From: Acidimicrobiales bacterium
GTDB lineage: Bacteria > Actinomycetota > Acidimicrobiia > Acidimicrobiales > UBA8190
Reading direction: 5' to 3'
NCBI GenBank assembly: GCA_035506735.1
Contig: DATJOV010000082.1
Coordinates: forward strand, 1-31,631
DNA: 31,631 nt
This document shows, one piece after another, positions 4,108-26,265 of this stretch (positions are counted from its first letter, which is position 1; each line of letters begins with the position of its first letter). The notes below the pieces were generated by a model. It ran no database searches and had not been told where the DNA came from. It was given only the letters and a program-made list of their open reading frames with translations. The translations under genes and the position numbers were made by a program.

Positions 4108-4881
4108 GTGCGGACACGGCGGGGACGGGGTCCGGGCGGACGGGCGCGGTGGGGACCGGTGTCGGCGCTCGCCCTGGTCCTGGGCGTCGTGGCTGCGGCC
4201 GGCCCCGCCCCGCCGGCCGGGGCGGCGACCGCTGCGTGCCGGCCCGCCCCCGGAGCCGACCTGGCCGGGTGCGACCTGGCCGGGGCCCACCTCCCCGGAG
4301 CCGACCTGGCCGGGGCCCGTCTGGCCGGCGCCGACCTGGCCGGCGCCGACCTGACCGGGGCCGACCTCGACGGCGCCGTCCTGCGCAGGGCCGACCTGCG
4401 GGGCGCCCGTCTGGGGGGCGCCGGCCTGGTGGGCGCCGACCTCACCTCGGCCGCCCTCAAGGGGGCGGTGGTGGGTGGGACCCAGCTGGCCCGGGCCACC
4501 CTCTTCGACGCCTCCTCGGGCCTGCTGGGGGGCGCCCCCGCCTCCTACCCCCCGTACTACGTCCTGGTGGACGGCTACCTGGTGGGGCCCGGGGCCGACC
4601 TGGCCGGGGCCGACCTGGCCGGGGTCGACCTGGCCGGGGTCCACCTGCGCTTCGGCTACCTGACCGGCACCGACCTGCGGAAGGCCGACCTGGCCGGGGC
4701 CGAGCTGCGCCACGCCTACCTGCACCACGCCGATCTCATCGGCGCCGACCTGGCCCGGGCCGACCTCCTCGACGCCCACCTCCTCGATGCCGCCCTGGCC
4801 GGCGTGACGTGGTACCTCACCACCTGCCCGGACGGCACCAGCAGCGCCGATGACGGGGGCACCTGCGCCGGCCACCTGTGA
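4108..4881 (+). CDS. Exported pentapeptide-repeat (A[D/N]LxxA) beta-helix protein
   Basis: 3' end of ORF 1228..4881. GTG 4108 with SD GGAGGAG; basic n-region plus hydrophobic h-region (SALALVLGVVAAAG); two blocks of ADLAG repeats; C-terminal TTCPDGT...GGTC. Candidate -10 TACCTT at 4044-4049. Confidence 0.88.
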   Translation: MRTRRGRGPGGRARWGPVSALALVLGVVAAAGPAPPAGAATAACRPAPGADLAGCDLAGAHLPGADLAGARLAGADLAGADLTGADLDGAVLRRADLRGARLGGAGLVGADLTSAALKGAVVGGTQLARATLFDASSGLLGGAPASYPPYYVLVDGYLVGPGADLAGADLAGVDLAGVHLRFGYLTGTDLRKADLAGAELRHAYLHHADLIGADLARADLLDAHLLDAALAGVTWYLTTCPDGTSSADDGGTCAGHL

Positions 4882-4925: not shown

Positions 4926-5123
4926 TCAGGCGTGGTGGACGACCCAGGTGATGCCCTGGTAGGCGCGCCAGCCCAGGTACACGGCGGTGCCGGCGATCAT
5001 GAGCTTGAAGTGCCAGGGGATCTTGCGGTGCTCGTGCAGCGCCTCGCCGCACGCCGGGCACGCCCCCGCCTCGGTGACGTCCTCCTCGTCCACCATGGCG
5101 TCGCACGTCTCGCACCACGGCAC
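4926..5123 (-). CDS. Small Zn-ribbon (CxxC-x14-CxxC) protein with a C-terminal transmembrane helix
   Basis: MPWCETC...CPAC...PWHFKLMIAGTAVYLGWRAYQGITW; SD GGGAGGAG upstream; co-directional, 57 nt after the der stop. Confidence 0.75.
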   Translation of the reverse strand: MPWCETCDAMVDEEDVTEAGACPACGEALHEHRKIPWHFKLMIAGTAVYLGWRAYQGITWVVHHA

Positions 5124-5180
5124 CTCAGTCCGCTCCTCCCCCGCCGCCGGCCGTCCCGGAGCGCCCCGTCCCGGCGCCGC

Positions 5181-6728
5181 TCACGACCCCACCCGCACCC
5201 GCAGCTTCATGGGGGTGGGGCCGATGTCGAACTGCTCGCGCAGCTTGCGCTCCACGTAGCGCAGGTAGGGGGCGGGGAGGCGCCGGTTGGCGAAGAGGGT
5301 GAAGGTGGGAGGGTCGGTGGCCCCCTGCACCCCGTAGCGGATGCGGGCCCCGGGGGCGGCGTGGGCGGCCTGGATGGAGCGCAGGGCCCGGTTGAGCTCG
5401 CCCGTGGGGATGCGCTGGTGGTAGGCCTCCTCCGCCGTGGCCAGGGTGGGCAGGATCTTGTGCACCCCGAGCCCGGTGCGGGCGCTCACCTTGACCACGG
5501 GTGAGGCCCCCAGGAAGGCCAGGCGGTCCTCGGTGTCCTCGACCACCTGTCGCCTGGTCTCGGTGTCGAGCTCCTCCCACTTGTTGAGCACCACCACCAC
5601 CGGGCTGCCCGAGGCCCCGATGCGCTCGGCCAGGCGCTGGTCCTGATGGGTCACGCCCTCGGTGGCGTCGATGACCAGGAGCACCACGTCGGCGCGGTCC
5701 AGGGCCTGCAGGGCCCGCACCATGGCGTAGTACTCGGTGCCCTCCTCGGTGCGCGACCGGCGGCGCATCCCGGCCGTGTCGATGAAGCGCAGGAGGCCGG
5801 CCTCGGTCTCGAGGAGGGTGTCGATGGCGTCGCGGGTGGTGCCGGGGAGGTCGTGGACCACCGACCGCTCCTCCCCCAGGAGGCGGTTGAAGAGGGTGGA
5901 CTTGCCCACGTTGGGCCGCCCCACGATGGCCACGGACGTCGCCCCGTCGCCCGGGGCGGGGGGCGGGGCCGCCCCGCCCGGCGCCGCGGCGTCCTCGGCG
6001 ACCACCTCGCCCTCGTCCGTCCCGGGTACGGGTCGGGCCGGTCCGGGCGGGGGCAGGAGGCTCACCACCTCGTCCAGGAGGTCGCCCGTGCCCCGACCGT
6101 GCAGGGCGCTCACGGGCCACGGATCTCCCAGCCCCAGGGACACGAACTCCCAGGCGTCGACCTCACGCCGGTCGTTGTCCACCTTGTTGGCCACCAGCAC
6201 CACGGGGGCCCCGGCCCGCCGCACCACCCGGGCCACGTCCTCGTCCTCGGTGGTGACGCCGACGGCGGCGTCCACCACGAGCAGCACCACGTCGGCCCCG
6301 GCCACGGCCCGCTCGGCCTGGCCCGCCACCTTGGCGTCGAGGGCGTCGCCGCGCCCCAGCCATCCCCCGGTGTCGACCACCACGAAGGGCCGCCCGTTCC
6401 ACTCCGCCTGGAGCTCGAGTCGGTCCCGGGTCACGCCCGGCTTCTCCTCCACCACGGCGGCGCGCCGGCCCACCACCCGGTTGACGAGGGTGGACTTGCC
6501 CACGTTGGGCCGCCCTGCCACAGCCACCACGGGCGTGCGCTCCGGCACCGCCACCACCGGCGTGCGCTCCGGCACCGCTACCACCGGCGTGCGCTCCGGC
6601 ACCGCCACCACGGGTGCGCGCTCCGGCACCGCCACCACCGGTGTGCGCTCGGGCACGGCCACCACGGGCGTGCGCTCCGGCACCGTCTCGTCGTCGGGCC
6701 CGTCGGTGGCCCCGTCGTCGGCGCTCAC
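5181..6728 (-). CDS. der: Ribosome biogenesis GTPase Der (EngA) with a repeat-expanded N-terminus
   Basis: Two G domains (GRPNVGKST twice; DTGG and DTAG; NKVD and NKWE) and a KH-like tail. GTG 6728 overlaps the upstream TGA (GTGA). Confidence 0.96.
   Translation of the reverse strand: MSADDGATDGPDDETVPERTPVVAVPERTPVVAVPERAPVVAVPERTPVVAVPERTPVVAVPERTPVVAVAGRPNVGKSTLVNRVVGRRAAVVEEKPGVTRDRLELQAEWNGRPFVVVDTGGWLGRGDALDAKVAGQAERAVAGADVVLLVVDAAVGVTTEDEDVARVVRRAGAPVVLVANKVDNDRREVDAWEFVSLGLGDPWPVSALHGRGTGDLLDEVVSLLPPPGPARPVPGTDEGEVVAEDAAAPGGAAPPPAPGDGATSVAIVGRPNVGKSTLFNRLLGEERSVVHDLPGTTRDAIDTLLETEAGLLRFIDTAGMRRRSRTEEGTEYYAMVRALQALDRADVVLLVIDATEGVTHQDQRLAERIGASGSPVVVVLNKWEELDTETRRQVVEDTEDRLAFLGASPVVKVSARTGLGVHKILPTLATAEEAYHQRIPTGELNRALRSIQAAHAAPGARIRYGVQGATDPPTFTLFANRRLPAPYLRYVERKLREQFDIGPTPMKLRVRVGS
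6523..6684 (-). repeat. Six tandem 27-nt repeats encoding (VPERTPVVA)x6 in der
   Basis: Units at 6523, 6550, 6577, 6604, 6631 and 6658; plus-strand consensus gccaccac(g/c)ggcgtgcgctccggcacc. No spacers; copies differ mostly at synonymous positions. Confidence 0.97.
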
Positions 6729-8113
6729 CGTGCCCCCACTGTGGCCGGCGCCGCCAGGGCGCGGCGCAACGAGGCCCCGTCGCTGCGCACGACCTCCACC
6801 GGTCGGGGGAGCTCGGCCGGGGTCATGCCGTCGAGGAAGCGGCCCTCGGACAGGCAGACGTCGGGGAGCAGGTAGCGCTGTCCCTCGGGCTCGTCGGCGA
6901 GGGCCCGGGCGATGTCGGTGCCGGTGAGGAGCCCGGTCACGGCGATGTTGCCCCCGAAGAAGCGGTTGGGCACCACCACCAGGCGGGCCGCCTCGTGGCC
7001 GGCGGCGAGGAGGGGGCCGAGCACGGCCGCCCCGTACTCGCCCGTCACCACGGCGGTGGGCCCGCCCCCCCGGACGGGGGCGGTGCCCAGGACCACGGGC
7101 GTCGGCGCCCCGGCCCGCGCCGCCCGGTAGCCGGCTGGAGGGGCGCCGTCGACGGCGGCGAAGAACCCGGGGCGGGTCCCGAAGGCGGCGTCCTCGTCGC
7201 CCCCGAAGGCGGCGGCGAAGGCCCGGGCCATCCCCACCCCGTTCTCGTGCTGGGGGAAGCCGTCGTAGGCCTCGGCGGCCGGGAAGGGCCGGCCCGCCAG
7301 GAGGTAGTACTCGTCGGCGGCGTACACCAGGCGCCGCCCCAGGGCGCCGAGGCACAGGGCCTGCCACTGCTCCACCGCGTCCACCACGGCGGCGGCCTCG
7401 TCGGCGCGGTGGGGCCGCATGGCGGGCTCGGTGGTGTGGTCGCTCACCCCGAGGGGCACGCAGGCGGCGGTGGCCAGCTCGGGGTACTCGTCCACGATCC
7501 CGGCCAGGGTGCCCTCGAGGACGGCCCCGTCGTTGACACCGGGGCACACCACGATCTGGCCGTGCACCTCGATGCCCCCGTCGAGCAGGGCACGCAGCCA
7601 CCGCAGGCTGGTGGCGCCGCGCCGGTTGCGAAGCATGCGGGCCCGCACCCCGGGGTCGGTGGCGTGGATGGACACGAACAGGGGGGACAGCCGTTCCTCC
7701 AGGACGCGCTCGAGGTCGAGCTCGGTGAAGCGGGTGAGGGTGGTGAAGTTGCCGTACAGGAAGGAGAGGCGGTAGTCGTCGTCCTTCAGGTACAGGCTGC
7801 GGCGCATGCCCGGCGGGAGCTGGTAGATGAAGCAGAACTCGCAGTGGTTGTCGCACGTGCGGACCCGGTCGAAGACGGCCGAGGACACCTCGATCCCGGC
7901 CGGGGTGCCGGCCTCTTTGTCCAGGGCCACGGTGAGCTCGTGGTGGCCCCGGCGCACCTCGAGCTCGGGATGGGCGTCGTCGACGAGGAGGCGGTACTCG
8001 ATGACGTCCCGGGGGGCGCGCCCCCCCACCAGCACCAGCTCGTCGCCCACCTGGAGGCCGGCTCGGGCCGCCGGGGACCCGGGGGCCACCGACACGACCC
8101 GGGGCCCCGACAT
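6725..8113 (-). CDS. DUF512 / TIGR03279-like radical SAM protein with N-terminal PDZ domain
   Basis: PDZ-like VAPGSPAARAGLQVGDEL; CDNHCEFC (CxxxCxxC); LYLKDDDYRLSFLYGNFTTLT; SIHATDP; QIVVCPGVNDG; YDGFPQHENGVG. ATG 8113 sits 7 nt after TAGCCT. Confidence 0.9.
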   Translation of the reverse strand: MSGPRVVSVAPGSPAARAGLQVGDELVLVGGRAPRDVIEYRLLVDDAHPELEVRRGHHELTVALDKEAGTPAGIEVSSAVFDRVRTCDNHCEFCFIYQLPPGMRRSLYLKDDDYRLSFLYGNFTTLTRFTELDLERVLEERLSPLFVSIHATDPGVRARMLRNRRGATSLRWLRALLDGGIEVHGQIVVCPGVNDGAVLEGTLAGIVDEYPELATAACVPLGVSDHTTEPAMRPHRADEAAAVVDAVEQWQALCLGALGRRLVYAADEYYLLAGRPFPAAEAYDGFPQHENGVGMARAFAAAFGGDEDAAFGTRPGFFAAVDGAPPAGYRAARAGAPTPVVLGTAPVRGGGPTAVVTGEYGAAVLGPLLAAGHEAARLVVVPNRFFGGNIAVTGLLTGTDIARALADEPEGQRYLLPDVCLSEGRFLDGMTPAELPRPVEVVRSDGASLRRALAAPATVGAR

Positions 8114-24877: not shown

Positions 24878-25789
24878 CTAGTCGTCGCCCGGCCCGGGGG
24901 CACGGGGAGCTGCCTGGGCGCCGGCCGGCGGCGCGTCGGGGGCCTCGCCCACGGCGGCGTCGAGCATGGCCAGCACCCCGGCCTCGAGCGACCCCGGGGT
25001 GACCCCTGTCCCCCCCGGGGCGACGGGGGCGGCGTGGGCCCGGGCACGGACCAGGAACTCGGCGTTGCCGGCCGGACCGAGCAGGGGGGACGCCATGGCC
25101 CCCATGATGGCGGCTCCCTGCGACACCAACGCGGAGGCGGCCCGCTCCAGGGCCTCCCGGCGCACGGCCGGGTCCCTGATGACCCCCCGCCCCCGGGCGG
25201 CGTGGCGGCGCCCCGCCTCGAACTGGGGCTTCACCAGCACCACGAGCTCGGCGTCGGGGAGGGCCAGGGTCCCGGCCAGGACGGGGGCCACGGTGGCCAG
25301 GGAGATGAAGGAGAGGTCGGCCACCACCACCGGGAAGGGGCCCCCCACGGCGGCGGGATCGAGGGCCCGCACGTCGGTGCGTTCGAGCACCCGGACGCGC
25401 CGATCGTGACGCAGGGACGGGTCGAGCTGTCCGTAGCCGACGTCGACGGCCACCACCTGGGCCGCCCCCCGCCGCAGCAGGCAGTCGGTGAAGCCCCCGG
25501 TGGAGGCCCCGGCGTCGAGACAGCGCCGCCCCGCCACCGCCACCCCGAAGCGGGTCAGGGCGGCGTCGAGCTTGGCCCCGCCGCGCGACACGAAGCGCGC
25601 CGTGTCGTCGCCGGCCAGCACCACCACGGCCTCGGACGCCGCCACCAGCCGGGAGGCCTTGTCGGCGGGGGCCCCGCCCACCAGCACGGCGCCGCTCGCC
25701 ACCAGGGTCCGGGCCCCCTCACGCGAGCCGGCCAGGCCTCGCCGCACGAGCTCGGAGTCGAGCCGGCGGCGAACGGGGGCAGGTGTCAG
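24878..25789 (-). CDS. tlyA: TlyA family 16S/23S rRNA 2'-O-methyltransferase; probable CTG start at 25789 (first canonical start is GTG 25747)
   Basis: S4-type [12 protein letters not shown] (partly upstream of GTG 25747), [54 protein letters not shown]. Confidence 0.94.
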
Positions 25790-26265
25790 GCGCCGGCCTT
25801 CTTGGCGGCGGCCTTCTTGCCGGCCGCCTTCTTGGCCGTGGCCTTCTTGGCCGAGGCCTTCTTCGACCCCGACTTGGCCGCCGTCTTCTTGGGCGCCGAC
25901 TTCTTGGCCCCCGCACCGGTCTTGGGGGACTTGGCCGGGCCCCGCGCCTTGCGGCCCGTGGCATGGCGGGCCGCGGCCGAGGAGCGGGCCAGGATGTCGG
26001 CCACCTTCTTGGCGAGGTCGTCGACGTTGGTGAAGCCCAGCTCCTTGAGCTGGCCCCGCACCTCGGAGCGCACCGTGGCCACCAGGGCCTCGGATCGGTC
26101 CTTGCTCGCCTTCACGAGGTCCTCGACCCAGTCCTGGGCCCGGTTGCGCTCGATCTCCCCGGTCTTGATGAGCTCGCGCACGAGCTCCTCGGCACGGGCC
26201 CGGGTGATCTGGGTCAGCGCCATGCCGGCCTCGACATAGCGGCGCAGTCCGTCGTTCTCACTCAT
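25786..26265 (-). CDS. Phasin-like helical protein with a histone H1-like Lys/Ala tail
   Basis: Amphipathic [28 protein letters not shown] domain followed by a KKAxA tail; ATG 6 nt after TAGCGT. Confidence 0.8.
25789..25863 (-). repeat. Five tandem 15-nt repeats encoding [25 protein letters not shown]
   Basis: Plus-strand units each end in gccttctt, starting at 25789, 25804, 25819, 25834 and 25849. Confidence 0.9.

Follow-up and report, generated by a model that had tools for sequence, protein, structure and literature searches.

A lineage-specific, in-frame array of six 27-bp units between the start codon and the first P-loop of Der in an Acidimicrobiales genome

The gene for the ribosome-assembly GTPase Der (der, engA) of an uncultured Acidimicrobiales bacterium carries, just within its 5' end, an in-frame tandem array of six 27-bp units (6522-6683, minus strand; coordinates throughout are those of the window, the whole stretch of 31,631 nucleotides that was analysed). 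The array is a tandem repeat of ordinary kind in an unusual place: its last unit runs into the core beta strand and P-loop of the first G domain (GD1) of an essential, conserved protein, and it is lineage-specific. The reading that we hold to be probable is that the array is an in-frame slippage product, translated and tolerated, which acts as a near-neutral lengthening of the disordered N-terminal lead of Der. Below we document the gene and its repeat units, their predicted structure, the corresponding region in related genomes and the conserved context of the start codon, and weigh this reading against others that place the origin of the array in assembly, its action in RNA, or its maintenance in selection.

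The der gene, its tandem array and the predicted N-terminal tail

The coding sequence spans 5181-6728 on the minus strand, stop codon included, and encodes a protein of 515 aa with two G domains and a KH-like domain. Its assignment as Der/EngA, already made in an earlier note on this DNA, is unambiguous: the whole protein scores 485.7 bits with TIGR03594, above the curated equivalog cut-off of 306.7, and residues 66-512 correspond to profile positions 1-432. Pfam identifies two MMR_HSR1 stretches, with P-loops at residues 72 and 270, and the two consecutive G domains display the GxPNVGKS P-loop, DTxG and NKxD motifs within the invariant columns of the family (G72-L81, D119-G122, N181-D184, G270-L279, D317-G320 and N382-K383). 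The KH-like domain is matched by PF14714 at residues 439-512 (E=1.5e-18) and is modelled by AlphaFold2 with a pLDDT of about 90. Solved structures of Bacillus subtilis and Escherichia coli Der match with E-values of about 1e-96 to 1e-89 (PDB Der chains, E=3e-96), and the nearest named homologues come from MAGs of Acidimicrobiales. Compared with known Der/EngA/YphC proteins (TIGR03594; 2HJG, 4DCS, 1MKY, 3J8G), the protein aligns over its full length from residue 66 to residue 512, with two tandem Era-like G domains, all invariant motifs and the KH-like C-terminal domain; it departs from them at its beginning, where canonical, structurally solved Ders start 1-3 residues before beta-1 whereas this one has a lead of 66 residues. 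Since position 1 of TIGR03594 falls at residue 66, and residue 4 of 2HJG (B. subtilis Der) and residue 2 of 3J8G align to P66 and residue 65, respectively, residues 1-65 lie outside the family model.

The gene opens with a GTG start and a 15-residue acidic head (6684-6728, minus strand), which after the start reads SADDGATDGPDDET. The GC content of the head by codon position (0.80/0.47/0.93) is like that of the rest of der, and the third-position value of 0.93, which holds for head and array, matches the remainder of the gene. Beyond the head, Tandem Repeats Finder (TRF) reports a period-27 array at 6519-6685 with 6.2 copies, 89% matches and a score of 264; together with the translation and a table of variable sites, this resolves into six head-to-tail units (on the minus strand, 6683-6657, 6656-6630, 6629-6603, 6602-6576, 6575-6549 and 6548-6522) that follow one another in exact register, with no spacers between them. 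The peptide encoded per unit is VPERTPVVA, with VPERAPVVA in unit 3. After the sixth unit the ORF runs on as VAGRPNVGKSTLVN, the last unit joining VAGRPNVGKST, which comprises the beta-1 strand and P-loop of GD1; beta-1 (residues 67-72, made of the last unit plus VAG) and the P-loop (G72-S79) lie at 6492-6530 on the minus strand, as placed by AlphaFold2, by the invariant columns and by alignment with 2HJG and 4DCS. The six copies described in the earlier note are thus recovered by TRF and translation alike, and the interval of 6523-6728 given there does cover the array plus the head, with its low end one base off.

Differences between the units are confined to six of the 27 positions. Five of these are third codon positions at which the change is synonymous (CCG/CCC twice, ACG/ACA-GCA, GTG/GTA and GCC/GCG/GCT), and the sixth is a first codon position, where the change replaces Thr with Ala in unit 3; the description of the copies as differing synonymously except for a T to A change in the third copy was therefore accurate. 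This excess of third positions among inter-unit differences (5/6; binomial P=0.018) fits a translated frame. The units are 1-4 nt apart in pairwise comparison and no two are identical, the closest pair being units 1 and 6 (1 nt apart), while CCG/GCG variants are common to interior units. By score, the array ranks tenth among the 1515 TRF arrays of the 3.4-Mb genome, and it is far beyond chance.

An AlphaFold2 model of the protein, built on a 68-sequence alignment and having a mean pLDDT of 79, shows no secondary structure over residues 1-60 (pLDDT 38-45), followed by beta-1 at residues 67-72 and then the P-loop helix. Residues 1-60 are accordingly predicted to be disordered, with only the last copy predicted to make beta-1; that the last copy supplies this strand had been claimed from the DNA, and the claim agrees both with the model and with the alignment of the B. 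subtilis protein at P66. The spare copies are Pro-rich; each contains a single Glu and a single Arg and so has no net charge, and they shift the acidic head some 45 residues further from GD1. In the topology of G domains, beta-1 leads straight into the P-loop and lies in the middle of the sheet. Strand-swapping or a register shift of beta-1 within a folded monomer, which had been among the roles proposed for the repeats, was rejected: beta-1 and the P-loop form one uninterrupted stretch of chain, so that no copy further upstream can take over as the strand without disrupting the nucleotide-binding site, and the modelled strand is limited to residues 67-72, the first 60 residues being unstructured with a pLDDT near 40.

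Distribution among relatives and the context of the start codon

No 27-bp/9-residue array was found in the Der sequences of 28 sister genera or among the 119 nearest Der proteins. A HMMER scan with residues 1-72 against 1.84 billion cluster representatives, which are clustered at 50% identity so that a repeat-bearing Der could hide behind a repeat-less representative, returned 90 matches, none of them a GTPase and none with a Der-type P-loop; all are generic Pro-rich repeat proteins. DNA-pattern scans of metagenome and genome contigs, sets that may lack the records of the source genome itself, gave 0 matches both for two adjacent units and for the single-copy PERxPVVAVAGRPNVGK junction, and a search of the literature on Der N-terminal extensions and tandem repeats found nothing relevant. 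Judged by these sequence comparisons, the array is restricted to one lineage. The suggestion in the earlier note of a copy-number-variable tuning element is not borne out by the comparison with relatives, none of which has the array, and the comparison gives no sign of conservation either.

The N-terminal leads of the family are conserved neither in sequence nor in length. In the 119 nearest Ders the G1 motif starts between residues 3 and 48 (median 30, one fusion excepted); it starts at residue 72 here and would start at 27 without the five spare units, so that their removal would return the lead to the length usual for the family. Leads of Acidimicrobiales Ders are similarly unconserved and reach about 41 residues, compared with the 66 found here, 45 of which are the five extra copies of the junction. 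Three homologues present the junction once, immediately before the P-loop, as PERLPVVAV (P0065), PERLPVVVV (P0095) and PEKTPVVVV (P0004). Because the unit is present in single copy at this position in these homologues, the array would represent a fivefold duplication of the junction between the lead and beta-1 of der itself.

Upstream of der in the same operon is a gene for a 462-aa protein with PDZ, radical-SAM-like and DUF512 domains (6725-8113, minus strand; PF17820, PF19238, PF04459), whose TGA stop overlaps the GTG of der as GTGA (6725-6728, minus strand). Such an overlap of start and stop (ATGA or GTGA, with the ATG or GTG in the frame of der) recurs in about 22 of 28 related-genus loci, and in 26 of the 28 a long ORF upstream terminates at the start of der or close to it. 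Where relatives have an overlapping start, 27-123 nt separate it from G1; in the window the separation is 213 nt, which would fall to 78 nt without the five units. The GTGA overlap suggests translational coupling of der to the upstream gene, and this putatively coupled start is a conserved trait of the operon, which in the window stands upstream of the array. Since the overlap is kept in about 22 of 28 loci and the array lies downstream of it, we infer that the array is most likely translated, as part of the ORF that begins with the GTG at 6728.

Origin of the array and alternative readings

In its general character the array resembles the coding VNTRs that arise in bacteria by slipped-strand mispairing, which are head-to-tail, have a period divisible by three, are lineage-specific and lie in disordered segments. 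Six 27-bp units stand in register within an ORF, the repeat being absent in relatives and the unit single-copy in three homologues. The hallmark of a VNTR is variation in copy number; the two assemblies of this locus, the only ones covered for the genus, both have six copies. The array differs from typical coding VNTRs in two respects: those are found mostly in surface or contingency genes, whereas this one lies in an essential housekeeping GTPase, and the der unit includes, in its final copy, residues of a buried core strand. Mycobacterial interspersed repetitive units (MIRU) are intercistronic tandem repeats with small ORFs that overlap the flanking stop and start codons. The der array is like them in sitting at a gene junction of an operon, just past a start/stop overlap, in a genome of the actinobacterial phylum, and differs in that its unit measures 27 bp, derives from the coding sequence of der itself and is not dispersed. 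Within its own genome only one partial similarity to the unit was found, a 26-nt stretch at positions 664-689 of contig C128 (L037, G000:C128) that matches the junction of two units at 96% identity, encodes PVVGVPERT and lies in an unrelated ORF (E=1e-4); we judge it a coincidence in a GC-rich genome.

We reason that an ancestral der carried a single ...PERxPVVAVAGRPNVGKS junction, and that a 27-bp segment encoding the end of the disordered lead and the first residues of beta-1 was tandemly duplicated five times, probably through slipped-strand mispairing or through unequal recombination; the genome is very GC-rich and in general has many in-frame tandem repeats. The background favours slippage: the genome holds 85 arrays that reach a TRF score of 100, a period of 9 and four copies or more, and 76 of these have a period that is a multiple of three. 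Related Ders, moreover, carry short repeats of their own in the disordered linker between GD1 and GD2. The resemblance of units 1 and 6, together with the CCG/GCG variants shared by interior units, is typical of expansion from the interior of an array. With a period that is a multiple of three and a position downstream of the coupled GTG, the duplicated units would be translated; the copy joined to the P-loop would be the only one to fold as beta-1, and the five spare copies would lengthen a variable, unstructured lead from about 21 to 66 residues by a Pro-rich, charge-balanced segment. A longer tail of this sort would be tolerated and probably close to neutral, and we infer for it a slippage origin and no specific function. 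The nearly uniform synonymy of the differences does not sit well with pure neutrality and hints that weak selection at the peptide level could act on the spare copies; alternatively, the same bias could stem from synonymous polymorphism inherited from a constrained single-copy ancestor and shuffled by unequal crossing-over.

Three other readings bear on whether the array is genuine DNA, at what level it acts and why it is kept. The source genome is a MAG of 482 contigs, 91.6% complete, in which a repeat could be over-expanded by assembly or assembled as a chimera of strain variants, and strain SNPs could in principle account for what distinguishes the units. An artefact is nonetheless unlikely, in agreement with the earlier note: all six units are distinct, so that no k-mer of length 29 or more occurs twice in the locus and a de Bruijn assembler is left a single unambiguous path, and a second contig agrees. 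The second member of the 90%-identity protein cluster, P0122, comes from a separate JGI/IMG contig of 10,357 bp and has all six copies unchanged, down to the Ala of unit 3, yet it differs by a frameshift upstream; the two assemblies may share reads. The usual fault of assemblers, moreover, is to collapse a repeat rather than to expand it, and the reading frame is kept throughout the array, so that we regard an artefactual source as very improbable. Another possibility is that the array, if genuine, acts mainly at the level of RNA, as a run of internal ribosome-binding sites (GGAG 9 nt before GTG-GTG) from which Der is largely or partly made, the last start giving the canonical MVAVAGRPNVGKS N-terminus and the spare units serving as a leader or as the source of a ladder of isoforms. 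The motif reported in the earlier note is indeed present in five units, with CGAG in its place in unit 2, canonical Ders begin 1-3 residues before PVVA (residue 4 of 2HJG aligning to 66, residue 2 of 3J8G to 65), and TIGR03594 begins at residue 66. The proposal that these are internal starts fared less well than the motif itself. GGAG-N9-GTG occurs 20 times in the window, with 10.7 expected from shuffles, and 15 times outside the array, with about 11 expected, and outside the array a Shine-Dalgarno-like motif with a start codon is thus not seen beyond the chance of coding sequence; inside it, the motif is a by-product of CCG-GAG (Pro-Glu) in combination with Val codons. The coupled start, for its part, is kept in about 22 of 28 relatives, all with leads of 9-41 residues, and the synonymous bias between units fits translation of the array. 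A structured RNA in the array was tried and rejected (MFE no better than shuffles, z=+1.5), and searches of the array found no Rfam match and no promoter-like or terminator-like site. Internal initiation within the array might occur at a minor level, though nothing argues for it, and we consider action through internal starts improbable.

The third reading accepts translation and holds that the tail is a selected functional element whose copy number serves as a tuning knob, either as a semi-rigid Pro-rich spacer or binding surface that keeps the acidic head off GD1 or as a modulator of association with the E site and L1 stalk of the 50S subunit. In the E. coli 50S complex, GD1 of Der contacts H82, H88 and L1 and governs the specificity of binding (PMC4245960); the synonymous bias among the copies (P=0.018) also speaks for this reading, and their divergence of 1-4 nt per 27 indicates that the array is not brand new. 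These points are set against its absence from every relative examined, the predicted disorder of the segment, the lack of conservation of family leads in sequence and length, and the fact that no copy-number series was observed, and we find a selected tail improbable. That selection on the protein keeps the spare copies, which would serve either as a Pro-rich spacer or as decoys of the buried beta-1 strand flanked by Pro, Glu and Arg as gatekeepers, and which could modulate the folding of GD1 or docking near the E site and L1 stalk, we likewise think quite unlikely; if it were so, an essential assembly GTPase would be tunable by repeat copy number.

Under the slippage reading that we prefer, the array would open no new mechanism. 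It would indicate that an essential, highly conserved GTPase tolerates a fivefold tandem duplication reaching into the first residues of a core beta strand, since folding is required of no copy but the one attached to the P-loop, and that in this lineage Der is permissive at its N-terminus, as it is in the linker between GD1 and GD2. For annotators, it illustrates that a long N-terminal extension in a GC-rich MAG may be genuine. Should copy number prove variable and phenotypic, the array would offer a modest model of how repeats can tune ribosome biogenesis.

Neighbouring features and other repeats

Several related Ders and contigs have features of their own. The Der of the closest sampled genus (P0036; L002, G018:C67), 82% identical to the present one, contains a 5-residue unit, TGVAG/TGAAE, repeated about 9.4 times at residues 197-243 in the disordered linker between GD1 and GD2, where shorter repeats occur in P0063 and P0073. 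P0003, a Der-like protein of 646 aa on a 3,298-bp JGI contig, has three GRPNVGKS P-loops, combining an Acidimicrobiales-like GD1 with a complete Der of another type whose C-terminus is extended by a basic segment. This protein is probably a chimera, produced in assembly by a join at the conserved P-loop, but may be a Der with three G domains. The frameshift in P0122 lies near the C-terminal third of the PDZ/radical-SAM/DUF512 gene (window ~6725-8113), where P0122 reads ...VVLGTARVRGG and the window reads ...VVLGTAPVRGGG. It joins the upstream gene in frame to der, giving the 964-aa P0122, and may reflect either strain variation or a homopolymer error in assembly.

Within the window, just downstream of der, a 65-aa ORF (4926-5123, minus strand) has two CxxC pairs, resembling a zinc ribbon, and a hydrophobic C-terminal segment; it is preceded by GGAG-N9-GTG at 5121-5136, and a Pfam search with this ORF gave no match. 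Two period-15 arrays of about 12-13 copies each (4250-4766, plus strand) encode pentapeptide repeats of the ADLxG type in an ORF that ends at 4881. Overlapping arrays of period 15, 30 and 45 occur at 25789-25914 (GGCGGCGGCCTTCTT type), where the minus strand would encode a Lys/Ala-rich repeat like a histone-like tail.

Elsewhere in the source genome (G000), at least eight loci contain 4-6 copies of a 123-/126-bp unit (41-42 aa), among them C274:4109-4861, C439:16374-17112, C419:15809-16501 and five more. The consensus DNA of these units suggests a GYW...DGG(V/I)F.FGDA..YG motif and would fit a large family of paralogous repeat proteins. Near-perfect period-14 arrays are found at C126:1316-1461 and C208:11432-11549 (10.4 and 8.4 copies, 97-98% matches); because 14 is not a multiple of three, they probably do not encode protein or, should they fall within a gene, would shift its frame.
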